Positions 8,391-62,900 of a stretch of 64,000 nucleotides of DNA are shown piece by piece. Both the position numbers and the translations under genes were made by a program. The notes beneath the pieces were generated by a model that was not told the origin of the DNA, made no database searches, and was given only the letters and a program-made list of their open reading frames with translations. Source of the stretch: Acutalibacteraceae bacterium (lineage in GTDB: Bacteria; Bacteroidota; Bacteroidia; Bacteroidales; Paludibacteraceae); the NCBI GenBank assembly GCA_963659365.1, contig CAVKTI010000004.1:9776-73775 (forward strand), given 5' to 3'. Each line of letters opens with the position of its first letter. Positions within the stretch are counted from its first letter, which is position 1.

Positions 8391-9923
8391 TCAATCCCAG
8401 CCGTCGAAAATGTGGTAATCGTACACATTGTCCTCGTTGGCATCGTGCAGCGGCGACCAGATTTGCGCAAAAAATGGGTTGCGTTTCGCCTCTTTGTCCC
8501 ACTGCCACGGACGCGGATTCGGCACATCGTTGTACGGATTTGGGAAGCAGTCGGGGCACCAATGGCCGCCCAACAAAATCAGTCGCGGCGAGGCTTCGAA
8601 GTGGTGTCCTTCGGCGCATTGCCACTCGAGCGGCGTGTCCCAATCGCCTGTTGTCATCGTTTGGCTCAAACAGCGGCCGCCACGAAATTCGGCAGCGCGG
8701 CGCATATCGTCGATGGTAAATTCGGCCATCGGTTTCTGCTCGTCGTAGCCGTGGTCGAGCAGCACCGCTTTTTCGGAATTGTGCGAAAGGTCGGTGTGTT
8801 TCCAATCGGGAATGGCGCGATATTTCTCCAGCGAACCGTAGTAAGCGGCTATGCGCTGCGTGTTGTGCTCTTTTATCCAAGTCTGCGTGCCGTGAACGGC
8901 CTTGTGCGCCATGGCACGCATGGCGAGTTTCACAATGTGCGGCACAAGTTTTGCCGCTTTGGTGATACGCGCAATTTTGATGCCGCTGGGCAAACTGTCC
9001 GATTGCGCCATCTGCGCGAAATAGTCTTTCGCAGGAATGTTCGCGCGGAAATGCAGATAGTCGTCGAGCCGATCGCCATCGAGATACCACATGCCGTGGA
9101 AATTGCGTGTGGTGAACCATCGGGCTTCGAAAATTTTTTCGGGGCGTGGGCAGCCAATCGCATCGAGCAGCAGGCACTCAAATTCGTAGTTCGACAGGCG
9201 ATATTCTGCGCCAGAACCGATGTTGTAGTAGCGATTCCAAAACTCGGGCGGCACTTCGGGACGGCAAACGCGCTCGAGCAGACGCCCCGAATCCTCCACC
9301 GTTGCCCATTCGAGTACGCCGCGAATCGGCACATGAAACATTATCGGGTCGTAGTTTTTTAAGATTGCGGGATAGAGAATGCCCGACTGCCGCAGACTGA
9401 CCCAAGTTTTGATGCCCGAATCGGTCAAAATGCGCTCCGCCACCGCTTTTGTCAGGCCGTAGTGGTCGTAGGCCGACACGCAAATAGGGTCGCCAGCGCG
9501 CCCCCAGTGCAGCGGTTCGCGACGGTCGCCCATCTGCGCCACCGACCCGATGTAAACCACTTTCGGTTGGCGGTCGCCTTGCGCCAAAACGGCGTTTTTC
9601 ACATTTTCGGCCGCAGCAAGGTTCACACGGCGTGTGGCGTGCGGTTTGTAGTCGGCTTGCGGCGACACCATACCGCCCACATGCAGCACAATGTCCGCAC
9701 CCGAAACGCCGCGCAACACATCGTCGTAGCGTGTCAAATCGCCCCAAATGATGTCGATTTTTTCGGTGTAGGCAGCCAATTTCTGCTTGTTTTTCGCACT
9801 TGGACGCGCCAAAATGCGCACACGGTAGTTGTCGGGATATTTGAGCAACTCTTGCAGGCCGGCCCAGCCCATTGTGCCAGTAGCGCCCGTCAAAAAGACA
9901 ACTCGTTTTCTATTTTCGCCCAT
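8391..9923 (-). CDS. NAD(P)-dependent epimerase/dehydratase-family (extended SDR) protein with a C-terminal extension
   Basis: 510 aa with a Rossmann motif (FLTGATGTMGWAG) and a YGLTK (YxxxK) motif. The many overlapping ORFs in other frames are GC-rich shadows. Confidence 0.8.
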   Translation of the reverse strand: MGENRKRVVFLTGATGTMGWAGLQELLKYPDNYRVRILARPSAKNKQKLAAYTEKIDIIWGDLTRYDDVLRGVSGADIVLHVGGMVSPQADYKPHATRRVNLAAAENVKNAVLAQGDRQPKVVYIGSVAQMGDRREPLHWGRAGDPICVSAYDHYGLTKAVAERILTDSGIKTWVSLRQSGILYPAILKNYDPIMFHVPIRGVLEWATVEDSGRLLERVCRPEVPPEFWNRYYNIGSGAEYRLSNYEFECLLLDAIGCPRPEKIFEARWFTTRNFHGMWYLDGDRLDDYLHFRANIPAKDYFAQMAQSDSLPSGIKIARITKAAKLVPHIVKLAMRAMAHKAVHGTQTWIKEHNTQRIAAYYGSLEKYRAIPDWKHTDLSHNSEKAVLLDHGYDEQKPMAEFTIDDMRRAAEFRGGRCLSQTMTTGDWDTPLEWQCAEGHHFEASPRLILLGGHWCPDCFPNPYNDVPNPRPWQWDKEAKRNPFFAQIWSPLHDANEDNVYDYHIFDGWD

Positions 9924-12321: not shown

Positions 12322-12590
12322 TAATTGACAATTGACAATGCAGAGCCGTCACAGTGTGGCGGCTCTACTGTTTTTGTTGGACATCGCCCCCTTTTCCGTT
12401 TTCCCCGAAGGGGAAAAGCCTTCGTTTAATTAAGAGTTATGAATTTAGAATTATGAATTTTTGTGTCCACCACCACCCAATTTGATTGAATAATTGGAAA
12501 TTAAGGAATTGGGTAATTAAAAAGTCTATGCTCTATCTTCTATGTTCTAAAAATCTATTCTTGCTACTTGCTACTCACATCTTGCGACTG
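12322..12590. repeat. Composite intergenic repeat cluster
   Basis: Contains (ATTGACA)n, hairpin AGAGCCGTCACAGTGTGGCGGCTCT, the small hairpin ttccccgaaggggaa, aatttagaattatgaatt, the AT-rich block, ctatgctctatcttctatgttctaaaaat and (CTTGCTA)2. Confidence 0.85.
12343..12378 (+). terminator. Rho-independent terminator after the response regulator
   Basis: AGAGCCG...CGGCTCT stem followed by actgtttttgtt, 22 nt after the stop. Confidence 0.6.
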
Positions 12591-18384: not shown

Positions 18385-18678
18385 ATTCTAATTAAGAATG
18401 AAGAATTAATAATGAATAATACTAGTAGCAAGTAGCAAGATACAAGTAGCAAGAAAAGTTTGAAAGTATAAAAGTGCAAAAGTAGGGACGCACCGAGTGC
18501 GTCCGAACGCTTCAACGATTAAACGCTTCAACAATTCAACAAAAACATAGAAACAAAAATTGCGTCAGCAATTTTGAAAAACCAGAAACCAGAAACCAGA
18601 AATTACTTTCACACTTTCACACTTTCTTACTTTCACACTTTCACACTTTCATACTTTCACACTGTTATACTGTTCATC
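18385..18678. repeat. Composite intergenic repeat cluster
   Basis: Contains aatgaagaattaataatgaataat, (TAGCAAG)n, gtataaaagtgcaaaagtaGGGACGCACcgaGTGCGTCC, (ACGCTTCA)n, AAAATTGCgtcaGCAATTTT, (AACCAGA)3 and (TTTCACAC)n. Confidence 0.9.
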
Positions 18679-19209: not shown

Positions 19210-19549
19210 ACCCCCTCTAATCCCCCAAGAGGGAAGATTGCTGCGCGGAAACGCAGCAATTTCAAATTTCAAATTATTAGTCGCAAGATATGAGTAGCAA
19301 GAATAGATTTTAAGAACATAGAGCATAGAACATAGACTTTTTAATTACCCAATTATCTAATTTCCAATTATTTAATTAAAAGTGCTGTGGCGTTTGGGAA
19401 CGCAAAAATTCATAATTCTTAATTCATAATTCTTAATTAAACAAAAGGCGTTTCCCCCTTCGGGGAAAGGGGACTACGACCAAAATAACAGTAGAGCCGC
19501 CACACTGTGACGGCTCTACATTGTCAATTATCAATTGTCCATTATCAAT
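19210..19549. repeat. Composite intergenic repeat cluster
   Basis: Contains hairpin TTGCTGCGcggaaaCGCAGCAA followed by (ATTTCAA)2, (TAGCAAG), attttaagaacatagagcatagaacatagac, the AT-rich block, (AATTCATAATTCTT)2, the small hairpin tttcccccttcggggaaa, AGAGCCGCCACACTGTGACGGCTCT and (TGTCAAT)n. Confidence 0.9.
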
Positions 19550-29754: not shown

Positions 29755-29944
29755 TTCATTATTTGAAGATTTGAAGATTGAGGTATTTTTGACTGCGTGG
29801 CTTTCCCCCCTTCGGGGGAAACGGGAAAGGGGGCTATGGCCAAGACGAAAACTTGGGCGGTGAACCTGCTGAACTGCAAATAACCCAATCAACAAAAAAA
29901 AGGACGCACCAAGTGCGTCCCTACTGTCATACTTTCTCGCTCAC
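29755..29944. repeat. Composite intergenic repeat cluster
   Basis: Contains (TGAAGAT)2, the small hairpin tttccccccttcgggggaaa and the hairpin GGACGCACcaaGTGCGTCCctac. Confidence 0.75.
29893..29920 (-). terminator. Rho-independent terminator of nadE, built from a repeat-family hairpin
   Basis: On the - strand, GGACGCAC-ttg-GTGCGTCC is followed by TTTTTTTTTG. It lies 25 nt after the nadE stop. Confidence 0.75.
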
Positions 29945-35148: not shown

Positions 35149-35156
35149 CAAAATTA
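35149..35156 (-). promoter_or_regulatory. Candidate -7 box (TAATTTTG)
   Basis: caaaatta on the + strand, 37 nt upstream of the ATG at 35112. Confidence 0.45.
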
Positions 35157-35164
35157 CAAAAAAA

Positions 35165-35613
35165 ACTTAACTTACTGAAATCGTGCTGCGCATTTCGGAT
35201 TGGGTTGATCAGTTGACGAGTTGATAAGTCGTTGAAAAGTTGATGAGTTGATGAGTTAATCAGTTGATTAGTTTAACGCATTGGTGATGGTTTCTGTTGA
35301 ATCGTTTAATCGTTGAACTGTTTATTTGTGGATTTGGTTATTTGGCTTTCCAACCCCTCCGCTTCGCTCGTCCCCTTGTAAAGGGGATAGGTTCGCGTTG
35401 GTTTAGTTCGTTAAATGTGTTTTTTGCACTGCTGCTGTTTTTTCTGCCCTCTCCCCTTTTCAAGGGGAGTACCTGCGGAAGCAGGGGAGGGGTTTTATCC
35501 CAATTTTGAATTTAGAATTATGAATTATTCGCGCTCAAAAACGCCGCAATCTTCAAATTTTCAAATCGGCAAACTAGAAACCAGAAATTACTTTTCACAC
35601 TTTCGCACTAATC
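35165..35613. repeat. Composite intergenic repeat cluster
   Basis: Contains (GTTGATGA)n-type arrays, ttgaatcgtttaatcgttgaac, the three-hairpin GC core in reverse orientation at 35351-35526 (ending aatttagaattatgaatt), caatcttcaaattttcaaat, aaaccagaaatt and tttcacactttcgcact. Confidence 0.9.
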
Positions 35614-37002
35614 TTACAAATAGCCCAAAATTTTGAGCATCGATTTGTAACTCTGCTCTTTGGCGAAGAGTTTGGTGGTGTAGTCGCCGTTTTCGTCGCG
35701 GTCGATGACGACCAGTTTCGGGGCAGGAATGAGGCAGTGTTGTATGCCGCCGTAGCCGCTCAAAGCCTCTTGATAGGCACCCATGTGGAAAAATCCGACG
35801 AACTGCTCGCCTTCCCACTCGTTTTTGGGCAGGAACACGGCGTTGGAGTGCGCCTCGGCGTTGTAGTAGTCCTCGCTGTCGCAGGTGAGTCCGCCCAGAT
35901 GCACGCGCTCGTACTCTTTGTCCCAATTATTCACAGCAAGCAGCACAAATCGCTGGTTCAACGCCCAAGTGTCGGGCAGCGTGGTGATGAACGAACTGTC
36001 AATCATGTTCCACAATTCGCGGTCGTTTTGCTGTTTTTGGTTTACTATGGAGTAGAGCATGGCACCGCTTTCGCCCACGGTGTAGGAGCCAAATTCGGTG
36101 AAAATGTTCGGTTCGGCGGTGTTGTAGTTGTTGCAGGTTTTCTTTATCTGCGACACAATCTCTTCGGCCATATATTCGTAGTCGTATTCGAAATCGAGGT
36201 GCGCTTGTATGGGAAATCCGCCGCCAATGTTGAGCGAATCGAGTTCGGGGCAGATTTTTTTCAGTTCGCAATAGAGGTTCACGGCTTTGTTCAACTCGTT
36301 CCAATAGTAGGCTGTGTCGCGTATGCCCGTGTTGATGAAAAAGTGCAACATCTTCAGTTTCACATTCGGATTGTGCTGAATGTGGTGTTTGTAATAGGGT
36401 ATGATGTCGTTATAGCGAATGCCGAGGCGCGATGTGTAGAAGTCGAATTTCGGCTCTTCTTCGGCGGCAATGCGTATGCCTACATTCATTTCGAGGTCGT
36501 CGTCGAACAAATCGAGTTCAAATTTGTTGTCGAGTATCGGAATTACATTTGTGAATCCGCTGCGAATCAAATTTTGTATATTTTCGACATATTGGGCGCG
36601 TTTGAATCCGTTACACAAGATGTATGTGTCCTGTTTAAGTAAGCCCGATTTGTATAATTCTTCCAAAATGTTGATGTCGAATGCCGACGAAGTTTCGATA
36701 TTTACGCGATTTTTAAGCACTTCTTCCATCACAAACGAGAAGTGCGAACTTTTGGTACAGTAGCAGTATTGGTAGTCGGCGGCGTAATCGACTTTGGCCA
36801 TTGCCACATTGAACATACGGCGGGCGCGCTGTATGTTTTGACTGATTTTCGGCAGATAACTGAGGCGCAACGGCGTGCCGTACTGCTTTATCAAATCCAT
36901 CAGCGGAATGCCAAACCAATGCAGTTCGCCATCTTCGATAGTAAACTCTTCGCTCGACAGGTCGAAAGCCTGCTCAATCAGGTCGATGTACTTGTTTTTC
37001 AT
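35614..37002 (-). CDS. Type III PLP-dependent decarboxylase (short arginine-decarboxylase-like)
   Basis: 462 aa with an alanine racemase/Orn-Arg-DAP decarboxylase-fold pattern. The candidate PLP Lys is in YCYCTKSS, and a GGGFPI motif is present. Substrate is inferred only. Confidence 0.75.
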   Translation of the reverse strand: MKNKYIDLIEQAFDLSSEEFTIEDGELHWFGIPLMDLIKQYGTPLRLSYLPKISQNIQRARRMFNVAMAKVDYAADYQYCYCTKSSHFSFVMEEVLKNRVNIETSSAFDINILEELYKSGLLKQDTYILCNGFKRAQYVENIQNLIRSGFTNVIPILDNKFELDLFDDDLEMNVGIRIAAEEEPKFDFYTSRLGIRYNDIIPYYKHHIQHNPNVKLKMLHFFINTGIRDTAYYWNELNKAVNLYCELKKICPELDSLNIGGGFPIQAHLDFEYDYEYMAEEIVSQIKKTCNNYNTAEPNIFTEFGSYTVGESGAMLYSIVNQKQQNDRELWNMIDSSFITTLPDTWALNQRFVLLAVNNWDKEYERVHLGGLTCDSEDYYNAEAHSNAVFLPKNEWEGEQFVGFFHMGAYQEALSGYGGIQHCLIPAPKLVVIDRDENGDYTTKLFAKEQSYKSMLKILGYL

Positions 37003-38792: not shown

Positions 38793-39080
38793 TTAGTAGC
38801 AAGTAGCAAGAAGCAAGAAGCAAGAAGCAAGAAAGATTTTAAGAACATAGAAAATAGAGCATAGACAAAATTAGTGTGAAAGTATAAAAGTGCGAATGTA
38901 GGGACGCACCGAGTGCGTCCGAGAATAATGAATAATACTCGCGGCCTTTCGGCTACCGACAACCAGAAATTAGAAATTAGAAATTTTTGCCTCACAGACC
39001 TTCACCAATGCGTTAAACTAATCAACTGATCAACCAATCAACTCATCAACCTAATTTGAAATCTGAAATTCCACAAAAAT
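38793..39080. repeat. Composite intergenic repeat cluster
   Basis: Contains (TAGCAAG)2(AAGCAAG)4 at 38795-38833, attttaagaacatagaaaatagagcatagac, gtataaaagtgcgaatgtaGGGACGCACcgaGTGCGTCC, aataatgaataat, (AGAAATT)3, reverse (GTTGATGA)-type arrays and aatttgaaatctgaaatt. Confidence 0.9.
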
Positions 39081-40418: not shown

Positions 40419-40707
40419 AAATAGTTAGAAGTGAGTAGTTAGTAGTGAGAAGTGATGCGGCGAAGCCGCAATTTCAAAATTTCAAATTTCAAATTTCAAA
40501 TTTCAAATTTCAAATTGTCGGATTAGCCCAATAAACATAGAATTTTTGCGACAAGCGAGCGCAGAGTCAAACTTGTTTGGGCTATGCCGAGCGGAGCAAA
40601 AATCTTCGTAGAAAAACTTAGGAACAAAAATTGCGTCAGCAATTTTGAGAAACAACTAGAATTCACTTTTACACTTTCTCACTTTCACACTTTTTCACAC
40701 TGATTAA
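40419..40707. repeat. Composite intergenic repeat cluster
   Basis: Contains (TAGTTAG/AAGTGAG)n, hairpin GCGGCgaaGCCGC, about six copies of ATTTCAA at 40471-40516, attgtcggattagccc, AAAATTGCgtcaGCAATTTT and (TTTCACAC)-type arrays. Confidence 0.9.
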
Positions 40708-47485: not shown

Positions 47486-47850
47486 GCTTTCGTTACCGCT
47501 TAATTCATAATTCTAAATTCTACATTGGCATTAACCCCCTCCGCTTCGCTCGTCCCCCTATCTTTTCGCTACGCTCCAAGCAGGGGGACAGGTTCGCACC
47601 CAACATTTTCTCGTTTTCTCCCCCTGCTGCGCAGCAGATAGGGGGAGTACCCACGCAAGTGGGGGTAGGGGTTTGGTTTAATTAAGAGTTAAGAATTTAG
47701 AATTATGAATTATCCGCGTTCCCAACCGCCTTAATTATTCAATTTTCGTCGGACGCACGCGGTGCGTCCCTACAATTTGAAATCTGAAATTTGAAATTTG
47801 AAATTGCGGCTCTGCCGCACCACCTCTCACCTCTTCATTTTTTTACACTT
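47486..47850. repeat. Composite intergenic repeat cluster
   Basis: Contains the TIR-bounded GC core at 47502-47711, the hairpin GGACGCACgcgGTGCGTCCctac, reverse (TTGAAAT)n followed by GCGGCtctGCCGC, and tttacactttttcacat. Confidence 0.9.
47502..47711 (-). repeat. MITE-like copy of the three-hairpin GC core with perfect 18-bp terminal inverted repeats
   Basis: The left end is aattcataattctaaatt (47502-47519) and the right end is aatttagaattatgaatt (47694-47711), its exact reverse complement. The interior has three GC stems homologous to those in copies at 161-296, 1388-1518, 6118-6258 and 35351-35526. Confidence 0.75.
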
Positions 47851-47937: not shown

Positions 47938-50900
47938 ATGAGAAACGCACCGCTATACACCCTATTCATATATGCACGCAAACGCTTGCTTGCGCTGGCC
48001 GTGGCGCTGTGTGTGGCTGTAGGCGCATGGGCGGAAGTGGACAAATGGGATACAAAGGTTGTGTCTTGGAGCAATGGTTCGGGAACGGTGGGTGATCCAT
48101 ATCTGATAGAAAGCGCCCAAAATTTGGCCTATTTGGCGGAGAGTGTAAATGCGGGAACCACTTATAGAGGTCAATATTTTAAATTGACAACGGATATTGA
48201 TTGTGATGGCAACCCTTGGATTCCGATAGGGAATAGTGCGACCAACAGTTTTCGGGGAACATTTGACGGTGATAATCATTCCATATATGATGTAAAAATA
48301 TCTTCTGGTACTTATTTGGGCTTATTTGGCAATACCAATGGTGCAACTATTAAAAACGTATATGTTGAAGCGGTGATTGCGTTGATTGCGTCATCGTCAA
48401 CGGTATCGCCGTATGCTGGCGGCTTGGTGGCTTATGCCAATAATACGATTGTAGAAAACTGCCATACCATGGGGGATTTGTCGGTGAGGGTAACGACGCC
48501 ATCGAATGGTATGCGTGTTTATGTGGGTGGTATGATAGGCTATGCTGTTAGCTGTAATGTGTCGTATTCGCATAACTATGCTCGTGTATTTTCACTTGAC
48601 CAAATAGTGGCTATTACCAATTCCAGTAATACTGGATATACCTATGCTGGTGGTATTGCTGCGTATGCTCAAAACTCTACTTTCACTTATGTGAGCAATA
48701 GCGGCAAAATCCAATCGGTGTCGTTTACGCATGCGTTGAGTAAATCTAAAAAGACGAGTTATTTTTCGTATGCATACGCAGGTGGCATTGTGGGCGCAGG
48801 CTATGCTACATTGTCATCGAACCAAAATACATTTAATCAATGTTATAACAAGGGGAATGTACAGACTATTGCTCGTGCTGATAATTTGGATTATCCTAAA
48901 TACGCTTGGACGTATGGTGGTGGCATTTGTGGTTGGGGCGGTACAACCAACAACTGTTATAATATGGGGCAGGTGAAGTCTTTGTCCATTTGGAGTCAAT
49001 CATACTATAACAATTACAGCATTCCTGCCTGTGCGGCGGGTATGGGATGGGGTGTAAAGGCCACCAACTGTTATAATGCAGGTACATTGATTGTGCGTTG
49101 TCCGACGACAATGAAAGGTTACGATAATGGAACCAATGGTAATTGTACTTGTTGCGCAAATACTACTGAAGAAGACGAAGTGCTCGGACACGACGATGAC
49201 TATTATAATGGAGAAACATATACTACTGAGTGGCGAACATACGCTTCAGCCGTTACTTACCCTATAAGTGGTGGTTTTGGTGTTGATAATAACAACCAAA
49301 ATGACATTTCGTCGGCAACCAATTGTTATTACTTGGAAGGTTGTTGTACTCCGTCTAACACTAAAGGCACTGGTCGTGGAGCCACTACACTGCAGAATGC
49401 CGCTATGCCTGGCACACTAAATGGTTCGGTGTTCATTCAAGACACGGAGAACATCAACAAGTATTATCCCATTTTTGGAACATATAAACCTTACGCCACG
49501 ACACTTGACTACATATCGGTGGATTCTACAAATGCCCTGTTGAATGGCGCATATAAATATGTCAATTCAGCGGACTCCGTAGGTTACGAGTTGCGTATGG
49601 ATGGCGAAAAGGAATGGAATACATACCGTTTGTCGTTGAATGGCAATCCGGGCAGTTTGCCTGAAAAGGTAACGGGTTTGATTCGCGATAAGCAATACAC
49701 CTATCGTATTTGGTTGGACGAGGGCGGTATGCGCCACTATGGCGATACATTAAAATTCCACACCACTTGTCCGCCGAACAATCCTGAGTTTCGTGATACC
49801 ATTTGCATGGGTTCCACATATAACCTGCATGGGTTCAATGTAACGCCCATTTCCGCTGGTACAACTACGCATGTGCATAACCTGCAAACCATTTGGGGGT
49901 GCGATTCTATCGTAACGCTTTACCTAACGGCGATGCCTCAATACGAGATAGAGATAAGCCAAGAAATTCGCGACAAGCAGAGCCCCTACATTTACCCGAT
50001 GCCAGCAGGCTACCGTTGGGAGCCGATTCCCGAAGAGTCCCGCACCTTTACCACATCGGGCGTGAAAACGCTGAATTTGAAAACAGTAAATGGTTGTGAC
50101 TCTATCGTCAAACTCGATTTGACCATCACGCCTACTTACGATATTCTTGTAACGCAGAACAGTGCCTTGTGGGGCGATGTGTCGGTGAATAAGCCCTATT
50201 TCACTGCTGGGGAGCAGGCCACAATCATTGCCACTGCCAAACCATACTACCACTTTAAGCAGTGGGAGAAAGATGGTCAAATAGTGGCCACCACCGCCAC
50301 ACACACCATCTATGTTACAGCCAGCGGCACTTACACCGCCATTTTTGAGCCCGACGAGTTCAAGGTAACTACGGGTGTGAACGATGGCAACATGGGACGA
50401 ATAGACCCAGCAGGCGAAAACAGCATGGCGTACAACAGCGACACGATGATAGTGGCCACTGCATACACAGGCTACGACTTTTTGGGCTGGAGCGATGGCT
50501 ACCAAGGCGGCGAAAGACGCAAATACAGAGTAGAACCGCGCGACACTACTATCACAGCCCTCTTTGCTATACACAATTACAATGTAACTACGAGCGTGAA
50601 CGATGACAACATGGGTAGCGTTACCGAGGGCGGCCGCAAGCCCTATAAATCGGACTTCGTGATAACTGCCACGCCAGCAGAAGGTTACGAGTTTGCAGGG
50701 TGGAGCAATGGTGTGAGCAAAGCCACCAATCCATACACATACACAGTGGAATCGCGCGACACAGCCATCATGGCGCGCTTCGTGGCGAAAAAGTTTTTGG
50801 TAACGACCGCCGTCGAAAAAATTGGTGATGTTACGCCGGGTGATGTTACGCCGGGCGGCTACATAGCCTACAACAGCGATACACTGATAGTGGCCACGCC

Positions 50901-53900
50901 ACGCAAAGGCTATCAGTTCAAGGAGTGGAAAGATGGCTTCGGCTCGAACTCCAGTCGCCTCTATAAGGTGCTGCCCACCGATACGACACTCACGGCCGTG
51001 TTCGAGCCTGTGGAGGTGAGCATCAACACAACAACGGTGGGCAACGGTTCGGTGGGCGGTGCTGGCACCTATCACTATGGCGACAATGTAACCCTCACTA
51101 CCACTGCGCCCACAGGCTACACATTCCAGCAGTGGCAAAACGGCAACCGCACCACGCCGCTGAACATTAAAATCAACTGGGTGGGCGACTCTACTTTCAC
51201 TGCCACATTTGTGCCAGTGCAGTGCGAGGTGAATATCGTTCCCGACGACTACAACCACGGCTCGGTAACGCCAAGTTCGGGCAGTTACGCCTATGGCACA
51301 GGACTCGATTTGGAAGCCAAAGAGAACGACTGCTGCTACGACTGGTCAGGGTGGACCGACACAAAGGGCGGCAGTTACGCCAATCGCAACTATCACATTA
51401 CGGTAAACAATCTTGATGGCCCAATCACCTACACCGCCAACTTCAAACCGAAATCGTTTACCGTAACCACTGCTGTGAAGGACGGCAACACTACGCTCGG
51501 CACAGTCGATGCTACCAAAACATACCTCTACGGCGACACCGCAATTGTAAAGGCCTATCCGAGCAGAGGCTATCGCTTCAAGCGGTGGAATGGCAGCGAC
51601 AGCGACTACGAGAATCCGCGCAAGTTCGAGGTTACCCAAGCGATTACGCTCACTGCCGAATTCGAGCCGATAGATGTGACGCTCACCACCAAAGCCACCA
51701 ACGGTACGGTAACGCCAAGCACAGGCAGCCACAAGTTTGGTGCCGCGATAAGCGTAACGGCATCGCCCGCCACAGGTTACAAATTTGTTGGTTGGGAGAA
51801 TGGCGAGACGCGCCAAAACTTCACCTTTAATATAGGTGCAAACGACACCACGCTCGAAGTGGTGTTTGTGAAAGACAACTTCGACCTCACCGTGCGTGTG
51901 CAGGACGACAACAGCGACTATGGCACGGTGTCGCCAGCGGGGACAAATTCGTATGCTTACGAAACGCTTGTGCCAGTTTCGGTAACGCCAAACGACGGGT
52001 TCAAATTTCTGCGTTGGCAAGAGAATGGCAAGACAGCGACCAGTTTCGACTACACGATGGGCGCAGCGGCGCAGACCTTCACCGCACTGTTCGACACACT
52101 GAGTTACCGCATTGTGGTGCAGCCCGAAAGCACAAGCAAAGGCAGCACCTCGCCAGCGAGTGGCGACCACAAATACCGCACAGAATTTAAGATAAAGGCC
52201 GAGCCGGCAACAGGTTACGAGTTCGACCACTGGAGCAACCCTGCCTACACCGATGCCGAATTTGTTTACACCACGCCAGCGAAAACGGAAACGCTGATTG
52301 CCTATTTCCGCCCGATACAATATCATGTAACCACAACCTGCAACGACAAGCACGGCACGGTAACGCCGCCAAGCGGCAACTACGATTTTGCTTCGTTGCT
52401 TTCGATACAAGCCGATGCGCGGCCCGGCTACAAATTCCTGCGCTGGGAAAACGGTAGCACTACCAATCCGCTGACTTACAAGGTGGAAGCCAAAACCGAC
52501 ACCGTGTTCGAGGCTCTGTTCACACCGCTGAACTACAAGATAACCCTCACGCGCAACGACGAGGACATGGGTACAGTGGCTGGCGGCGGCACATTCCCAT
52601 TCGATACGGAGGTTACCATCACCGCGCGTCCAAATTCGGGCTACAAGTTTGTGCGCTGGAGCGACGGCACGAGCGATGCCGATTCGGTGCGTAGGTTCGA
52701 GATAAATGTGCCGAGCGACACCACCATTCAAGCCATCTTTGCAAAAGCAAGTTTCAACATCACCACCGAGGTGAATGTGGCGGGGCGTGGCACAATAGCC
52801 CTAACCCCAAGCGGCGGCAAGTACCTCTATGGCGACGATGTGGAGATAAGCGCAACGCCTAACACTGGTTACAAGTTTACGGGTTTCACCTCTACTGGCT
52901 GGACAGGCACCGAACCCGACAATCCGTACACATACAATGTGAAGGCGCAGAACATCACGGTTACCGCCAACTTTGTTCCGCTGCAATACACCGTTTCCGC
53001 CACAGTGAACGATAAAGCCATGGGCGAGGTGTCGCCAACGAGCCGCACATGCGACTTTATGGGCAGTGTCGATTTCACGGTAACACCAAAAACTGGCTAC
53101 TCGTTCGTAAACTGGGACGACCTGAACAGCAGCGAACTCACGCGCACATACACGCTCGAAACGGCTGGCAATGTTGCACTCAAAGCCAACTTTGCACCGA
53201 ATACCTATCACATCACAGTAGAGTCGGCCGACGAAGACCAAGGCACAGTTACTGGCACAGGCGACGTGGTTTATAACACGGAAGTTACCATTACCGCCAC
53301 GCCAAAAGAGGGCTACAAATTCTTAAAGTGGCAAGACGGCGATAAAAAAGCGGAGCGCACTATCAACAACTACCGCGGCACCACGCCCGACTCGGTGTTC
53401 ATCGCCTACTTTACGCCGAACGGCTACAATGTGAACGCCGAAAAGACCGCAGGCAAAGGCACGGTTTCGCCAACAAAACAGAGCGGCACTTACAAAGGGT
53501 CGGTAACGGTAACCGCTACGCCAGCAAGAGGCTACCAAGTGCAGTCGTGGAATGGCGATGCGTCTGAAACCGAATTGACCTACACCTATAATATAGATGA
53601 ACCGCGCGACACGGTGGTGCGTGTGGCCTTCGCACCGATTGAAGTGCCTGTTTATGCCATCTCGGCCAACGATGATTGGGGAACTGCTGCCGTTATAGGC
53701 GGCAACGACCACAAATTCGACGAAGAGGTCGAAATCGTAGCGACGGCCAAAAATGGTTACGAGTTTGTGGGCTGGGAAAATGTTTCGGGCGGTGCAAGCA
53801 AAAAATTCACTATCAGCAGCACAAAAGACACCACATTTACCGCCGTCTTCAAACGGAAGAGTTACCATGTAACCACGCAACCAGACCATTGGCAGCATGG

Positions 53901-56900
53901 GTCGGTTACGCCAGCCACTGGAAATTATGTGGTCGACACCATATTATATATAACCGCTGCGCCGAAAACAGGTTACGATTTTGCTGGTTGGCAGTATCAG
54001 CCAAGCGAAACTGGCACGACTATTCAGTACAAAGTGCTTCCGCTCGACCACGACACCACATTCCAAGCCAACTTCGAGCCGAAAGAGTTTACCGTTTCGA
54101 CGGCTGTTGGCGAAGGGCTTGGCACTGTTTCGGCTGGCGGCAAGGTAAAATTTGGCAGTTCCATCACCGTTACTGCTACGCCCGAAACTGGTAAGTCGTT
54201 CAGAGAGTGGCGGCTGGGCAACAAAGTGGTGTCGAGCGAGGCAACATTTACCTACACACTCGACACAGCGAACAATATAACGCTCACGGCCTGCTTTGCC
54301 GATCAAGTTTATCGCATATATGCCTATGCTGCCGATGGCAACGGCACAGTGAGTGGCAGCGGCAACTACGAGTACGATACAAAGATACCGCTCGAAGCCA
54401 AAGCCAACTGGGGCTACGAGTTCGACAAGTGGACCGATGGCGCAACAGATGGTTACTACCGCATATACACGGTTACAGGCGAGGCCAACATCTCTGCCAC
54501 ATTCAAAAAGAAGAAATTCAAAGTAACCGTTCGTTCCGAAAGCACGAGCAAAGGCGAGCCAACGCAAATACTCACTAACGCAGAATACGAGTACCAATCG
54601 ACCATCGCCTTGGGCGTTACGCCAGCGTCGGGTTACGAGTGGAGTCATTGGGCCGACAAGAGCGGCAACAAACTGAATGTAACGGAGAACTTTACGCTCG
54701 ATGTGCGGAGCGATACCATAGTAACCGCCTACTTCAAACCAAAAACATTCCATGTAATCACCACAAGCAACGATGAGAACATGGGTACTGTAACGCCAGC
54801 CACAGGCGATTACGAATTTGGCACACCGCTGACTGCGAAACCCATTGCCAAGTTGGGTTACAAATTCCTCTATTGGAACGACGACCCGACGCTGACCGAA
54901 CAAACATTCACCTACCCAGTGGCGGCGGTGGACAACTACACCATCAAGGCGGTGTTTGGCAAGGAAAGTTACGGCGTGAAACCGCAAAACGATGGGCACG
55001 GCACAACTACGCCATCGGTTTATACCAAGTACGAGTACCAATCGACGGTGAAAATCTATGCCACGCCAGCCGAAGGCTACACCTTCGACCATTGGAACAC
55101 GGAAGAGACTACCGACACCGTATATTATTTTGTAGAGCCGCGCGACAGCACCTACAAAGCCTACTTCCGCCCACTGACTTACACGATAACCACAAAAGTG
55201 GACGACAAAGATCGCGGCGAAGTGACGAAATTCACTGAAAAACAGACTTTCGACACCGATGTTACTATTACCGCCACGCCGAAAGAGGGCTATGTGTTCG
55301 ACCACTGGAACGACGACACATCGCTCGATGAACCTTCGTTCACTTACAATGTGGCGGCAAGAGATACAGTTATTGTGGCGCATTTCCGTCCCGATAAGTT
55401 TACGGTGAAGACAGTTGGTAAAGATGGTCTTGGCACAGTTTCGGGCGCAGGCACTTATGACTTTGGCACAACCATTTCGATGCAAGCCGATGGCATTGCT
55501 GGCTACGAGTTCTCCTATTGGGAAGACCGCGCCACATCGGACAACCCGCGCGAATACAAAGTGTTGGCTCATCGTCCCGACACCACATTCACCGCTGTGT
55601 TTGCTCCGATAAATTACAAAATTTCTGTGGCGGTGATCGACACTTGCAATGGGCGCGGCTCGGTTAGTGGCACTGCTACCAAGGCATTTGGCTCTACAGT
55701 AACGGTTACAGCCACGCCGAAAGATGGCTACCACTTTGTGAAATGGCACGATGGCGATACCGACAATCCGCGTGAGTATAGGATTGAAGATGCGTGCGAC
55801 ACCACACTGCGTGCCATATTCATGCCCGAGGAGTACACCATCTCTGTAGCTACCGAATCGAGCGTAAAAGGCACGGTGAGTGGCGGCGGCAAAGCCCTCT
55901 ATGGTCGCACCACGCCCGAGGTGAAAGTAACCGCCACGCCAGAAGAGGGCTATCTGTTCGACCACTGGAGCGACGGCAGCAAAGATAGAGAACACACCGT
56001 TACGCCATACAAATGGCTGAAAGATACTACCCTGACGGCCTACTTCACAACCGCTTCATATCAGGTTTTCGCGCAGGTGAAAGGCACTGGCGGTAGTGTA
56101 GAGCCACTTGTGCAGCAGTGCAACTATTTAGGTAGTGTGCAGATAACCGCCACATCATCGCGTGGCTACCGTGTGAAGGCGTGGAACGGCACCGAATCGA
56201 CCGCCGAAAGTTATAAGCACACGCTGCTGTTGCCCCAAGACGAGACTGTATGGGTAGAGTTCGAGCCGATAGATGTGTATGTTTATGCCGAGTTCGACAA
56301 AAACATGGGCGCAACAACCGTAACGCTCGAAGGCGAAACCACGGCGCACAACGACTATAAGTTTGGCGACAGAGTTACCATCACCGCCACACCGAAGTCG
56401 GGGTATAAATTCGACTATTGGGCGGACGAATTTGGCACAAAACTTTCGGGCGGTGCAGAAAAATCGTTCAAAATTACCAGCATAGACGACGACACCATAT
56501 TTACCGCTGTATTCTCGGCCGAAACATATCGTGTAAACATCACCTCGAACAACGGCACATACGGCACTATCGAGCCAGAATCGAAAGACTATGCGTTTGG
56601 CGATAAAATCAACATTGTGGCAGAAGCCAAAACTGGTTACGAAATTGTGGGCTGGGAGAAACAGCCAAGCCGTGGCACACAAGACAGATTTACCTACACC
56701 GTGGAGGCTGTCGATGACACCCTATTCCAAGTAAACTTTGCGCCGCGCAAGTTCGAAATAACCACCACTACCGATGGTCTTGGCACAGTAACGGCAGGCG
56801 GCGAAAAAGAGTACAACACCACATTCAAGATAGAACCCACGCCTAACGCTGGTTACAAGTTCAAGTATTGGGAGATAACCGTTGGCGGCAGCATCAGCAC

Positions 56901-59900
56901 CAGCACCGACAATCCGCTCTACTACCAAGTTCCAGCCAACAACGCCACCGTCAAAGCCTACTTCGAGCAGCGCGACTACACGGTAACTGTAACGCCCAAT
57001 AGCACCGACATGGGCAGCGTAACAGGCAGCGGCAAATACACCTACGGCAATACCGCTCTGGTAACCGCCACGGCGAAAGCGGGTTACCAATTCTCGCACT
57101 GGAGCGATGGCGATGGGTCGGGGACAACGCGCAGTTGGACGGTGAAAAACGACACGACCTTCCAAGCCGTGTTTGTAGAAAACGAGTACGAACTCACCAT
57201 TCAGTCGAGCGACAAGAACAAAGGCTCTGTCGATCCAGAACTTCTTAACGATCCGCGCAAATATAAGGAGTCGATTTCGTTCAAGGCTGTACCTGCAACT
57301 GGCTACCAACTGGAGCGTTGGAGCGACGGCAACACCGAGGTCAATCGCTCGCACACGATGGAGGCAAAGAGTGCTTCGTACACCGCCTACTTTGTAGCGA
57401 AACGATACCCTGTAACCATAACGACGAACTACGACTATATGGGTAGCACCACGCCAGCATCGGGCGAATACCCATACGACACCACGCTCACTATCAAAGC
57501 CACGGCCAATCCAGGCTACAAGTTCGTAGGCTGGGAAGATGGCGAAACCAGCAGCCAACGCGACTACAAGGTAACAGATGTGGCCAAAACATTCCGTGCG
57601 CTGTTCGAAAAAGATAGTTACACACTCTACACCGTGGCCAAAGATGGTCTTGGCACAGTAACGCCTGCCACTGGTTTGAAACACGAATATCAGACGCGGG
57701 TGGAGATTACAGCCACGCCAAATGCTGGCTACCACTTTGTGCGTTGGCAAAATGGTGAAACGGCCAATCCTACTTTCTACGATGTGTTGGCGAAAGATTC
57801 GACCTACACCGCCTATTTCGAGCCGAATCTCTACAAGATAAGCACCCAAGTCGCTTGTAGCAGCAGTAGCAGTAGCGATTGTGGCACTGTAACCGCATTC
57901 GACGAGGATCAGCCCTACGGTTCAAAGGTAAAAATTACTGCCACGGCAAAAGAGGGCTATGTGTTCGACCACTGGAACGACGATGCGACGCAGACCAAGA
58001 ACCCCATCGAATACACAGTGCAGATAAAGGACGACACCACCTTTGTGGCGCACTTCCGTCCGCTGCAATACTACATCACCATCGAGGCACGCACAGGCGG
58101 CACGGTAACGCCAGCATCGGGCTACTACGATTACGGCACGCCGCTTACAATCAAGGCATCGCCCAGCGATGGCTATACTTGGAACAAGTGGACCGACGGC
58201 GAAGAGCAGTTCGAACGCCGTTACACCGTTGAGGCGCACTCGATGACCTTCACCGCCTCCTTTACACCGATAAAATACACGGTAGCGGGCGCAGTAGTGG
58301 CTGGTCAAACCGACCGCGGCAGCGTAAATCCAGACTTCCAGCGAGCCGACTTTGGTACAACTGTTACTGTAAACGCCATGCCAGAAACAGGCTATGCGTT
58401 CGATGTTTGGCACGATGGTTGGGACAGAAATCCGTATGTTTACAAGATAGAAACAGCGAAAGACACCGTGCTGCGTGCCAAGTTCAAACCGTTGCAGTAC
58501 AAGGTAACGACAGGCGTCGCTTCGGGCGTGGGCAAGGTAGAAACAACGCCAACCACAACCAACGGCAAATACGATTTCAACTCCACAGTTGTACTCGAAG
58601 CCAAGCCCGAGGCAGGCTACAAATTTGTCGGCTGGAGCAATGGCGAAGGTGAAAATGTGAATCCATACACATACATCGTAGATGCGCGCGACACCACTAT
58701 CAAAGCGAACTTCGAGCCGATAGGCTACACCATAACGGCAGCGGTGAACGACGGTCTTATGGGCGAGGTTACGCCACGCGACACCGTGGTTAAATACAAA
58801 CAGTCGGCCAACTTGGTGGCAAAAGCCAACGACGGCTACCACTTTGTAGAGTGGGACGACACGAAGAGCACCAACCCGAAGCGCACCTACTGGGTGGACA
58901 CGCCGAGCGACATTACACTGCGTGCCATCTTTGCGGCAAACGAATACCAACTCACCGCCAGACCTGAATGGTCCTCGCAAGGCACGGTTACTGGCGGCGG
59001 CACGGTAACATTCAACCAAGATGTAACCGTAGCGGTAACTGCCAACGAGGGTTACACATTCTCGCACTGGAGCGACAACACCAGCCAAACGCCATACACC
59101 TACAAATATACCACCGTTGGCAATTCGGAGATAATCGCCTACTTTACCGCCAATCAGTACAACATCACAACCAAAGTGTTGGGTGGCAAAGGCTCAATTT
59201 CGCCCGATCAGGCGCAAGGCACTTATGGCGAAAGCACCAAATTCACAGCCGTACCTGCGCGTGGTTATCAGGTGAAAGAATGGAGCAATGGTTCCAGCGA
59301 GATAGAAAACAACTTCCGACTCAATATGCCGCGCGACACCATTGTTACTATCGAGTTCGAGCCGATTACCATCAATGTCAATGTGTCGGAGAACTACGAC
59401 TACATGGGCAGCGCATCGGTTAAGGGCGGCAACGAACACAAGTTCGATTCGGCGGTAACCATCATCGCCACGCCAACGACGGGCTACAAGTTGCTGCGCT
59501 GGATGGACAATAACGGTACGCAGGTTGGCACGACTTTAGAAAAGACCTTCACCATCAATAGCGTACGCGACACCACATTCCAAGCCATTTTTGCGCCGAT
59601 TTCGTGCAGCGTTATCACTGGTTCGGGAGGCAATGGCACAGTAACGCCGCCGTCGAAGTCGTATCCCTACGACACCACATTCATGGTGCAAGCCACGCCA
59701 AACGAAGGCTACCAGTTCGACCGCTGGCGCGACCAGCCGTCGGTTACAGACGATTACATCAACTACACCGTCAAAAATCTGGACGGTGACACCACCTTCT
59801 TCGCCTACTTCAAGCCGAAGCAGTACTACATGGCGGCTGTGGCCAATGGCGGTCTTGGCACGATAACGATGACCGATGCCAACGGCATTGTAGGCGACGG

Positions 59901-62900
59901 CATGAAAGACTACAAATCGACCGTATCTCTTTCGGTAGTGCCAACTGCTGGCTACAAAGTAACGGAATGGCGCAACGCAGCAGGTGCAGTGGTGGCTGGT
60001 GCTGTTACCTCGTTCACCTACCAAGTGCCGCTCGATGGAACTACACTGACTGCCTATTTTAGCAAAGAGACCTACCACATTACCGTTACAACAGACAATC
60101 CGTCGGCTGCCGAAAGTTTTACAGGCGAGGGCGACTACGAATATGGTGCGACACCTACCGTTTCGGTTACTGCCAAGCATGGCTGGATATTTAAGCAGTG
60201 GGATTACGATGCCACGAAAACGCAAACACACCAATACACGGTGAAAGGCTCTGCCATTATCAAAGCCATATTCGAGAAAGATAAATTCCGTGTAACAGGA
60301 ACGAGCAACAGTTACACCATGGGCGATGTTTCGCCACGCGACTTGAGTTACGAATATCAATCGACAGCGACACTGACGGCTATTCCTGTGCTTGGCTATC
60401 GGTTTGTAGAGTGGCAAGATGCGAATGGGAATAGCCTTGGCAACAAAAACCCATACGAATACTATGTCGAAGATGCTGCTTCGTTCAAAGCCATATTTGC
60501 AGAGGAGAATTATCTGGTGAATACAGGTGTGAACGATGCCTCACTTGGTTCGGTAACGCCAACGTCTAATTCGTACCCATTCAATAAGATTATAAGTGTC
60601 AAGGCCGAAGCGAGATCGAAAGGCTACGAGTTTAAGTATTGGATGAACCAAGACAGCGTGAAGAATGGCACCGACAACCCGCGCAGTTACACCGTGCGTG
60701 CGGTGAAAGATACCACGTTCATCGCCTACTTTGGCCCAGCCAACTTCAAAGTGGAGGTTGCCTCGGACGACTATAGCATGGGTAGTGCAACCATTTTGCC
60801 AGCCTCGGCCGACAAACGCTATCCCTATTTGAGCAAAGTTACCGTTACGGCTAAACCAAGCGAAGGCTACAAGTTTGTCCGTTGGAGCGACAATAGCACC
60901 GATGCTACACACGACTACTATGTCGATGCGGCCGATGTGGTTCTCACCGCCTACTTCGAGAAAGATAATTTCCAAGTGCGCACCGCTGTGAACGACATCT
61001 ACATGGGCGTTGTCAATCCGTCGGGTACTAATCTCTATTCGTTCCAAGATACGCTGCTGCTTACCCCAACACCTATCGACTCTGGCTACAAGTTTGCGCG
61101 CTGGAGCGACGACAATAGGCAAAATCCGCGTAAGTACATAGTGCAAGCCAAGGCAGACACGCTGTTTACGGCCATTTTCGAAAAGCGTAAATTTAGTGTA
61201 GAAGGTCTATCGGACGACGGTTCTATGGGTTCGGTTACCCTAACGCCCGAAGGCGATGGCAGCGGCGAATACGAATATCTGAGTAGTGTAGTGCTGCGCG
61301 CTGTGCCAGAACCAGGCTACGAGTTCGACGAACGCTGGAAAGGCAGCAACACCAAAAAGGATTTTGTCGAATACATAGTGCAGGCAAAAGACACCTCGTT
61401 CACGGCGTTCTTCCGCCCAAAAGACTACAAAGTAACCATCGCAACCAACGACGACAAGATGGGTTATGTAGAGCCAGGTAACAACTATTACACATTTGGC
61501 ACGAATCAAGATTTTGTAGCGACATGCAACTCTGGCTATCAGTTCTCGCATTGGGAGAATAATCATGGTGTGCGTGTAGGGTCCAATGCCAAACTCACAT
61601 GGAATGTGAAATCGCAAGATACCATACTCATTGCCGTATTCAAACCCGATAAGTACACAGTCAAAACCGTCAGCGCACAGCCCAACTGGGGTTCTACATC
61701 GCCTTCAATTAAGCAGTACGACTATTTGGATTTGGCTACAATCAAAGCCGTGCCAAAGCATGGTTACTACTTTGTAGGTTGGGACGACGGTGGCAATGGC
61801 AGCACCGATACCGTGCGCGAAGTGAGTGTAGAGGCCAACATTACCTACACTGCCAAATTTGCTCGCGAGAGTTACACCGTTACCACAGGCACTAACAACG
61901 GCTTGTGGGGCAGCATGACACCAGCGACGGATTCGTATCTCTACGACAGCATCATTACGCTGGTGGCCAAGCCTGTGCATAGCGGCTATGTGTTCGACCA
62001 TTGGAGCGATGGCGATGGCAGTCGCGAAAACCGCATTTTCAAAGTAACAGACGACACCACCATCACAGCCATATTTGCCAAGAATAAATTCTGGGTGAAT
62101 GTAAGTTCCGAAAACGCCAGCAAAGGCACGATAGAACTGCCCAATCCAGCCAGCGCACAGTACGAATACTACACCCCAGTGAAATTCAAGGCAGTGCCAG
62201 AGTCTGGTTACGAGTTCGACTATTGGAGCGACGATCCTAATCAAAAGAGTGCCGAGCGCACCTACATTGTCGATACTGCCAATGTGAACATTGTGGCGCA
62301 CTTCAAGAAGGCTCAATTCAGAGTGTATGGCAAATCAGACGACAGTTCGATCGGAAAAGTCGTTCCGCAAGTGGGCTACTACGCATTCGATAGCACTATT
62401 CATTTGGTGGCTCAACCTGCCACAGGCTACAAAATTGACCATTGGGAGAACAAACATGGCGTTCGTGTGGCGGCCGCAATCGATAGTTTGGAATATACCG
62501 TTGAAGCCGTAAAGGATACCACATTCTTTGCCTTCTTTGTGAAAGACAAATACATGGTGCGTGTGCGCACAAACGATGCTAATTATGGTACGGTAACGCC
62601 GAAAACTGATCAGCAATACGAGTACCAAAGCACGGTAACGATGAAGGCGATGCCAAACAAAGGTTATCAGTTTGTGCAATGGAAAGATGGGCACAAGGGC
62701 GACAGCATACGCACCTACATAGTAGAGGCCAAGGACGATACCACTTTCACCGCTATATTCGAGCCGATTATCTACACGCTTACCGCTTCGGCCTACGAGG
62801 GCAAAGGCACGCTCTCGCCCTCGAGCGGTTCGGTGGCATACGATTCTGCCGTTTGGGTAACGGCTACGCCTAACGATGGTTATACATTCGACCATTGGCA

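Follow-up and report, generated by a model that had tools for sequence, protein, structure and literature searches.

The 64-kb window, by which we mean the whole stretch of DNA analysed here, is ordinary chromosomal DNA whose genes include those for DprA, RecO, PGI, an H+-pyrophosphatase, MiaA and NadE. The nearest named relatives of its arginine decarboxylase belong to Paludibacteraceae MAGs, and none of its 40 open reading frames (ORFs) encodes a transposase, an integrase or a DUF559 protein. Between its genes, this genome is a patchwork of short repeat modules. A sequence-only reading of the window had listed six copies of a structured repeat core, and all six are indeed present, as five full elements and one half element; the stem sequences that it quoted were also confirmed, among them the CCCCCT/AGGGGG variants and, in copy 6, the nested GCTGC/GCAGC hairpin.

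Each full element is an inverted dimer of arms of ~ 50 nt in the order left (L) arm, spacer, right (R) arm. An arm consists of a C-rich block, a complementary G-rich block, a linker that folds into a mini-hairpin and a third G-rich block. The R arm can be written as TGTCCCCTT - loop - AAGGGGAC - GA - GCGAAGC - GGAGGGGTT and the L arm as AACCCCTCC - variable small hairpin - TA - CTCCCCTT - loop - AAGGGGAG; the linker mini-hairpin is thus GCGAAGC in the R arm and variable in the L arm. The L and R arms are reverse complements that have diverged, which is why a model of the R arm matches the L arm on the other strand. The loops of the two main hairpins also tend toward reverse complementarity to each other. 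A covariance model built from the right arm (R1) and run with filters off revealed six right arms (246-296 +, 1469-1519 +, 6199-6261 +, 7087-7137 -, 35349-35399 - and 47531-47600 -) and, on the opposite strand, five left arms, with no further convincing match in the 64 kb. There are five exact matches to the 22-mer GGGGACGAGCGAAGCGGAGGGG in the window and none in 100 shuffles; the stem 2 sequence occurs four times.

In copy 1 (+ strand), the L arm (182-239) comprises the terminal block AACCCTACC (185-193), the small hairpin CCTGC/GCAGG (194-207) and the main hairpin CTCCCCTT/AAGGGGAG (210-228); it was recognised by the right-arm model on the opposite strand (9.9 bits) and by a scan for triplex-type motifs (184-228 -) that is described below. 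Its R arm (246-296) pairs GTCCCCTT (257-264) with AAGGGGAC (268-275), followed by GCGAAGC (278-284) and the third block GGAGGGGTT (285-293), and was supported by the covariance model (51.8 bits), the triplex scan (257-293 +) and the 22-mer. Copy 2 (1409-1519 +; L arm 1409-1466, R arm 1469-1519), identified from the sequence, the duplication analysis, the covariance model and the triplex scan, lies inside a tandem duplication of 37-1242. This 1.2-kb tandem segmental duplication (families D7 and D12) holds both copies, with paralogous 250-aa ORFs between them, and copies 1 and 2 are therefore not independent insertions.

Copy 3 (6133-6261 +; L arm 6133-6192, R arm 6199-6261; 25.2 and 20.3 bits) has a GAAAAAC-GACA-GTTTTTC hairpin in its R arm in place of the GCGAAGC linker and keeps the third block as GGTGGGGTT; in the triplex scan its linker is 22 nt long and its block is GTGGGGT. 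Copy 4 (7087-7137 -) is a solo R arm with part of the spacer and without an L arm, supported by the model (55.9 bits), the 22-mer and the triplex scan. Copy 5 (35349-35497 -; R arm 35349-35399, L arm 35440-35497), found by both model and scan, carries an insertion of ~ 34 nt in its spacer. In copy 6 (47531-47674 -; R arm 47531-47600, L arm 47607-47674), both main hairpins have long loops with nested hairpins. Read on the + strand, its R arm runs through AACCCCCTCC (47533-47542), GCTTCGC (47543-47549) and GTCCCCCT (47552-47559) to AGGGGGAC (47582-47589), and its L arm from CTCCCCCT (47618-47625) to AGGGGGAG (47640-47647) and the small hairpin CCCAC/GTGGG (47650-47664). The two arms scored 47.7 and 14.1 bits, a later model search gave 55.1 bits, and copy 6 also forms a long L:R hairpin (see below).

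Base pairing and mirror symmetry of the arms

Selection maintains two features of the repeat family, Watson-Crick pairing and a mirror purine block. Compensatory changes in the stems, which had been proposed from the copies in the window, were borne out: pairing is kept in 97.9% of stem cells, and eight of the 11 pairs change on both sides. Double changes were observed in 141 cells compared with 43 in shuffles, and none of 500 shuffles reached the observed number; the aligned arms came from loci selected without regard to the repeat, and fitting the alignment to the model favours pairing. In the L arm, the small hairpin varies freely in sequence while its pairing is kept (CCTGC/GCAGG, CTGCC/GGCAG, CCCAC/GTGGG, CCACC/GGTGG, CCCCGA/TCGGGG and others). 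The asymmetry between G·U and A·C pairs was considered as a strand test and set aside as not usable, because the loci concerned were chosen by the exact 22-mer on one side of the stem.

The earlier description of three hairpins holds with respect to pairing but not as the minimum-energy fold. Folded as a single DNA strand, the dimers favour a single extended hairpin between L and R (z = -5.4 in copy 6, -4.4 in copy 1). The linkers, in turn, fold better than their shuffles (-2.25 vs -0.69 kcal/mol, p = 1.5e-17), and many of them contain G-N-A triloops. The oligonucleotide d(GCGAAGC) is an unusually stable DNA mini-hairpin.

This GCGAAGC mini-hairpin had been overlooked, as had the third conserved block of each arm, which is GGAGGGGTT or, read from the opposite strand, AACCCCTCC. 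This block is a mirror image of the second according to the code G·G, A·A, T·A, i.e. when it is read backwards it matches the purine block, with G facing G and A facing A or T. Two sequence types are linked at three places, CCCCTT/AAGGGG/GGGGTT and CCCCCT/AGGGGG/GGGGGT; this triple covariation of a T-type and a G-type could reflect two lineages instead of many events. The same code is found in arms with very different blocks, such as GGAGGGG/GGGGTGG, AAGGAGGAG/GAGGTGGTA, AAGAGGGGG/GGGGGAGTT and GAGAGGG/GGGTGAG. The linker before the mirror block is 9-16 nt long in the family and 10-12 nt in the scan frames of the window, apart from the longer one of copy 3.

A generic scan for triplex-type motifs, written without reference to the elements, returned 11 motifs in the 64 kb, and nine of them are arms. 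Nine of the 11 window arms were thus found, the two long-loop arms of copy 6 being missed owing to the loop limit. The scan demands the mirror block by construction, and support for the block therefore comes from the enrichment near genes reported below and from hairpin controls. In a test of the longest run on full stems, a downstream mirror block covering at least the stem minus one position was present in 38% of 304 hairpins near DUF559 genes, compared with 8% for a direct repeat and 1% and 3% for the upstream controls (Wilcoxon p = 3.6e-18). An earlier control based on 7-mers with one mismatch did not separate mirror from direct repeats.

Arms of this kind recall the triplex-type repeats of E. 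coli, named TMECO by Holder et al. (2015). For the E. coli motif, an intrastrand triplex of the purine type was formed in vitro (CD, NMR), and such a DNA triplex cannot form in RNA (PMC4666352). Earlier work cited there found that PIT elements, another name for these repeats, blocked DNA polymerase in vitro and had no effect in vivo (PMC4666352). A conserved mirror purine block that can fold on single-stranded DNA points to selection on DNA structure and not on RNA.

Distribution and linkage to DUF559 genes

The exact 22-mer is unchanged in more than 107 loci of contigs representing one genome per species, in Bacteroidaceae, Alistipes, Segatella, Paludibacter, Dysgonomonas, Prolixibacteraceae, Flavobacteriaceae and others. 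In a crude pattern screen of 125 22-mer sites (120 in these loci and five in the window), a recognisable left-arm main hairpin was found upstream of 47 sites, 27 of which also have the terminal block; neither feature was seen at 70 of the 125. The right-arm model located 234 arms in the ~ 750 kb formed by the 22-mer loci and the window. Phage and plasmid collections contained no match to the element, and a literature search with the 22-mer sequence strings returned none.

Are the elements mobile? A mobile-element-like nature is plausible. Among the relatives compared, no clean pair of filled and empty sites was recovered: those at 96% and 92% identity of the flanking proteins are without the element and also differ in gene order, and the relative at 98% has it. 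Relatives found through the arginine decarboxylase likewise differ in downstream gene order. The close relative L190 carries a composite element at the site of copy 5, an intergenic region with fast turnover between relatives that are 98% identical. Short-read assemblies break at the copies, and contigs with matching proteins end at the repeats.

Which gene, if any, accompanies the repeat? When ORFs within 3 kb of the elements were clustered (107 loci), the neighbour family shared by the largest number of loci was DUF559, with eight; the runner-up, ABC-type ATPases, occurred at seven loci and further from the element. By tblastn, genuine DUF559 copies are present in nine of the 107 element loci, all of them within ~ 450 nt of the exact 22-mer and seven within ~ 150 nt. 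At the remaining two DUF559 loci, one gene has a weaker arm overlapping its 3' end and the other has only a motif-like sequence just upstream.

An independent sample was provided by 80 metagenome loci fetched by the DUF559 protein alone, some near-duplicates being included. A covariance-model match lies within 200 nt of the gene in 39 of the 80 loci, and 68 of 100 model matches are near a DUF559 gene, compared with 22.9 expected. A triplex-type motif lies within 250 nt of the gene in 67 of the 80, and motif density is 4.97 per kb near the gene compared with 0.23 per kb far from it and ~ 0 in shuffles. Based on crude gene calls, 88 of 114 gene-adjacent intergenic regions (77%) contain a motif, compared with five of 56 others (9%) in the same loci (odds ratio 34.5, p = 3e-18). 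The arms flank the gene in a stereotyped pattern, with the end of a + arm 8-68 nt ahead of it and the beginning of a - arm 0-57 nt behind it, and this pattern remains constant although the block sequences vary widely among loci. Often a whole dimer is present in duplicate, one on either side of the gene (e.g., in L110, L114 and L117), and in a gut lineage the DUF559 gene is enclosed by inverted repeats, at least ~ 65 bp long, that consist of L-type arms. These data establish by position a genetic tie between the repeat family and small DUF559 genes.

The putative partner protein of ~ 120 aa matches PF04480 above the gathering score (E = 2e-33 to 1e-25), and its closest solved structure is PDB 3hrl (E = 6.5e-25). 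Its alignment shows invariant D, E-x-D, H and E-N columns. DUF559 has been grouped with Vsr and the homing endonuclease I-Bth0305I in a single clade (PMC3424549). In PADLOC, the nuclease domain matched larger defence proteins only weakly and in part.

The same association was found in E. coli, where ycjD is the sole DUF559 gene in its 5-kb neighbourhood and the sole triplex motif within 5 kb of it is a BoxC element 168 nt downstream on the same strand. This element is TMECO no. 9 of Holder et al., formerly BoxC or PIT (PMC4666352). A 66-nt query consisting of that BoxC copy and its flank had a median of 16 matches per genome. The gene ycjD is present in 3378 of 5426 complete genomes, and genomes without it carry the eef efflux operon (eefRABCD) at the same sapF-fabI site; in one of these strains, UPEC 536, no triplex motif was found there. 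The eef operon was inferred to have been lost on at least two independent occasions, with ycjD located there in the lineages that are without eef (PMC12817139). Since strains without ycjD carry eef, the site is replaced and not empty, and E. coli was rejected as an empty-site test. In the literature accessible free of subscription, we found no report tying DUF559 or ycjD to BoxC or triplex repeats.

Possible explanations of the repeat family

On a slight balance of probability, we regard the window elements as gene-less inverted dimers of a triplex-type palindromic repeat whose partner enzyme is a DUF559 protein presumably acting as a nuclease. Each arm, when read on the strand to which it belongs, presents a pyrimidine block, its Watson-Crick purine block, a mini-hairpin linker of 9-16 nt and a second purine block mirroring the first, which on single-stranded DNA could fold back as a reverse-Hoogsteen third strand. 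DUF559, a PD-(D/E)XK nuclease of the Vsr and I-Bth0305I clade, is predicted to recognise and cut the folded arms, and repair or recombination with other copies at the cuts would spread, duplicate or delete the repeats and the gene. The window copies would then be non-autonomous members and local hot spots of rearrangement, in a proposed parallel to REP/REPIN repeats and the RAYT enzyme. Such a cut-and-repair route would explain the [L-R]-gene-[L-R] arrangement, why so many copies are without a gene, how copies 1 and 2 came to be duplicated in tandem and why copy 5 lies in a region of fast turnover. It may be speculated that the conserved T opposite G at the base of the main stem (T11, invariant in 62 sequences) would be a Vsr-type feature and a possible recognition point. 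Instead of serving as targets, the arms could regulate the expression of a toxic nuclease gene.

Could the repeats exist without a dedicated enzyme? They would then be dispersed structured DNA repeats, spread by replication slippage and recombination and tolerated between genes, and DUF559 genes would be small mobile genes landing or retained at recombination-prone sites. This explanation, which we consider unlikely, agrees with the unusually rearranged TMECO loci, for which no link to mobile elements was reported (PMC4666352), with the absence of DUF559 from most element loci and with the short-module mosaic of the intergenic DNA. However, it does not account for the stereotyped way in which arms of very different block sequence are oriented and spaced relative to the gene, for the 77% vs 9% contrast between intergenic regions or for the exact 22-mer across families.

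The sequence-only reading had attributed the covariation to selection on structure in RNA or single-stranded DNA. Structure stands; RNA is improbable, whether as a cis-regulatory leader, an sRNA or a cluster of 3' hairpins that stabilise or terminate an mRNA. Watson-Crick covariation and some T-opposite-G stem positions are compatible with an RNA, as are the upstream gene lying on the same strand somewhat more often (49 vs 28 by crude gene calls) and the position of copies 1, 2, 4 and 5 upstream of same-strand genes. However, Rfam yielded no usable match at the gathering score or even at E = 10 (the best, RAGATH-19, reached 15.8 bits, the threshold being 85.6), all four classes of gene orientation are represented, arms are present on both strands of every element, and there is no U tract. 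The mirror purine block would have no role in an RNA hairpin, purine-motif triplexes being restricted to DNA, and PIT elements had neither promoter nor terminator activity in the earlier work cited by Holder et al. (PMC4666352).

Very improbably, the dimers are cassette-type recombination sites (attC-like), placed in direct orientation on either side of genes and serving a site-specific recombinase. Such a role fits the [L-R]-gene-[L-R] arrangement at DUF559 genes and at the paralogous ORFs between copies 1 and 2, but no integrase was found in the window or among recurrent neighbours, the copies are dispersed singly and not arrayed, and, by eye, their ends do not fit attC core sites.

The 18-nt inverted repeats around copy 6 (47502-47519 and 47694-47711) are exact, and they had been taken as terminal inverted repeats (TIRs) arguing for mobility. 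This argument fails: the 18-mers belong to a 7-nt tandem array that is common in the intergenic DNA of this genome. The left repeat (47502-47519 +) is an AATTCAT/AATTCTA array, a separate flanking module and not the end of the element, and the right one is part of an array at 47680-47712 on the - strand. A copy of the array precedes the L arm in copies 1, 2, 5 and 6, and copy 6 has a second, inverted array on the other side; the other copies never have 18-mers on both sides. When up to two mismatches are allowed, the 18-mer AATTCATAATTCTAAATT has 11 sites in the window, no core being nearby at six of these (8356, 8370, 12428, 12442, 19407 and 19421), and the flanking module occurs without a core at 8317-8398. 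No target-site duplication was visible on reading the flanks, where element boundaries are not sharply defined. A classical MITE moved by a DDE transposase encoded elsewhere would agree with the exact repeats of copy 6, the multiple intergenic copies and the breaks in short-read assemblies, but with these array data, and with no transposase among the 40 window ORFs or the recurrent neighbours in 107 loci, it is scarcely credible.

REP/REPIN elements served by a RAYT (a Y1 HUH transposase) are equally hard to credit: palindromic units in inverted dimers that form one long hairpin do resemble REP dimers (PMC3733652), but the arms have no unpaired GTAG or CGTC tag as required by the definition in PMC3733652 (in TGTCCCC...GGGGACGA, GTC pairs with GAC), REP families are usually specific to a species or genus and the 22-mer here spans families, and the earlier statement that no RAYT or cognate transposase is present in the window was upheld and extends to the recurrent neighbours of the 107 loci, among which there is no Y1 transposase and the recurrent family is DUF559.

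Comparison with known systems

The best reading of the window elements is that they are a Bacteroidota counterpart of the E. coli BoxC/PIT/TMECO repeats with a longer linker. Both have a C-rich block, its complement and a mirror G-rich block with the G·G, A·A, T·A code; both are always intergenic, show no strand bias and form inverted heterodimers (A + B there, L + R here). The ~ 20 copies per genome and the rearrangement-prone loci are further points of likeness. BoxC-type blocks (CCCTCTC/GAGAGGG/GGGTGAG) also adjoin DUF559 genes in metagenome loci and are found nested inside Bacteroidales arms. The second loop, in contrast, is 3 nt long in TMECO (TTA/CCG) and 9-16 nt with a mini-hairpin here, which is outside the 1-6-nt limit of the ITxF search (PMC4666352). 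The TMECO consensus CCCTCKCCC..GGGAGAGGG-TTA-GGGTGAGGG and the blocks GTCCCCTT/AAGGGGAC/GGAGGGGTT, compared by eye, are not similar, and the 22-nt stretch that is invariant across families here is a further difference from TMECO. The TMECO paper does not mention ycjD or DUF559 (PMC4666352).

A wider proposal, which we hold to be possible rather than probable, is that DUF559 proteins, including YcjD, are the missing partner of BoxC, PIT and triplex repeats in general and form a second partnership of the RAYT/REPIN type across phyla. A nuclease with a Vsr fold would recognise the folded hairpin or triplex in single-stranded DNA, and when the cut is repaired, repeats and gene would be copied into other members of the repeat family, which would also cause the rearrangements at these loci. 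The BoxC/PIT repeats of E. coli, familiar since the 1990s, have had no function, origin or partner protein assigned to them, and DUF559/YcjD, a widespread family with a nuclease fold, has a solved structure but no known role. The positional link, which holds from Bacteroidales to E. coli across unrelated block sequences, gives both puzzles one concrete experiment, namely binding or cutting of the folded repeat. The present analysis also extends triplex-type repeats to Bacteroidota, including the gut genera Segatella and Alistipes, where they break short-read assemblies and mark fast-changing intergenic regions.

REP/REPIN-RAYT systems are similar in that short palindromes occur mostly as inverted dimers folding into a long hairpin, with many gene-less copies and a few that flank one small gene for a DNA-cutting enzyme. 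They differ from the elements described here, which have an extra mirror block and no unpaired GTAG/CGTC tag, and whose flanking units are for the most part complete dimers in direct orientation; the enzyme, too, is HUH Y1 in REP/REPIN and belongs to the PD-(D/E)XK Vsr-like superfamily here. CGTC-tagged REPs, described by Di Nocera et al. (2013), are likewise reported from Bacteroidetes, among other phyla, and resemble our elements in their stems of 8-9 bp, their head-to-head dimers and the lack of a known dedicated transposase (PMC3733652). However, their unpaired tag, A/T-starting stems, loops of 4-5 nt and CCA tail do not fit here, and identity with them was rejected on the definition of that family (PMC3733652). 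Finally, free-standing homing endonuclease genes and that of I-Bth0305I, an enzyme with a Vsr fold, resemble the DUF559 loci as small nuclease genes in or beside conserved DNA that is a possible target (PMC3239194, PMC3424549), with the difference that the presumed target of DUF559 is predicted to be a dispersed repeat and not a host gene or an intron site.

Tandem repetition in and around the elements

Short tandem arrays with a unit of 7-8 nt (AGTAGCA, TAATTATC, AGGTTAG, ACTTTCAC, AATTTCA and others) crowd nearly every intergenic region of the window, for example at 37-130, 8211-8387, 18390-18676, 38798-39055, 40422-40698 and 47774-47805, and 114 rows were returned for the window by a tandem-repeat finder. 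GC elements, the triplex-type repeats built as L arm, spacer and R arm, are likewise flanked by 7-9-nt arrays of a similar kind in many other Bacteroidales genomes.

Repetition on a larger scale was found at copies 1 and 2, which lie in a tandem segmental duplication (37-1242 and 1270-2421, ~75-80% identity between the units). Each unit consists of flank arrays, an L-R element and an ORF of 250 or 243 aa, neither of which had a Pfam match. Thus, direct L-R dimers also bracket a gene other than DUF559, the small Vsr-like nuclease proposed as the partner enzyme of the arms. A giant ORF on the forward strand (~48300-64000, >5000 aa, continuing past the window end) is also built of repeats, which carry a G-Y-x-F-x-x-W signature and are spaced mostly at multiples of ~215-225 nt; a partial copy on another contig is annotated as a 2332-aa product.

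Turnover and assembly breaks at element sites

The copy-5 site was compared with that of a close relative (locus L190, 11507-11758, versus window 35152-35640). The arginine decarboxylase is 98% identical between the two strains, while the downstream intergenic DNA is very different: the relative has an additional nested copy-6-type arm, a copy-3-type arm and 7-nt arrays unlike those of the window. In locus L173, the host-gene start located 5' of the DUF559 unit (1-130; ttacgcgcatagYgtggaagggaagccg...) recurs past the downstream dimer (700-800), and this sequence pattern suggests either a duplication made upon insertion or tandem paralogues.

Assemblies are broken by GC elements. In two other assemblies of the same organism (L193 and L194), short-read contigs stop within ~130-170 nt of the genes beside copies 6 and 3, and such breakage may conceal GC elements from MAG-based surveys.

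Related motifs and the E. coli ycjD locus

The pattern of pyrimidine, complementary purine and mirror purine blocks also occurs in small hairpins of the window (12387-12416, reverse strand; 29802-29833, forward strand; also 19455-19471). These hairpins read TTTCCCC-loop-GGGGAAA followed by AAAAGGG; they may be simple terminators or else represent another triplex-type motif, of minimal form. In a Flavobacteriaceae MAG (L027, 902-1074), three identical R arms form a tandem array with a 62-nt period, which looked CRISPR-like at first but is a repeat arm plus a fixed spacer.

Units resembling the E. coli BoxC, of the form CCCTCTCC-loop-GGAGAGGG-TT-GGGGTGAGG, are nested in or adjoin the loops of Bacteroidales R arms (L110, 2999-3085; L016, 1618-1727; L084, 3013-3092; L111, 3041-3127), and a BoxC-like block pattern adjoins DUF559 genes in L111, L177 and L186. 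The E. coli DUF559 member, ycjD (L195, K-12, 1351040-1351830; absent from L196, UPEC 536), is found in just 62% of complete genomes of that species and carries an IS1 insertion in one strain (ETEC6). Its start is overlapped by a perfect 17-bp hairpin, and in K-12 a remnant of the ycjD 3' end lies downstream of the gene, together with a BoxC.
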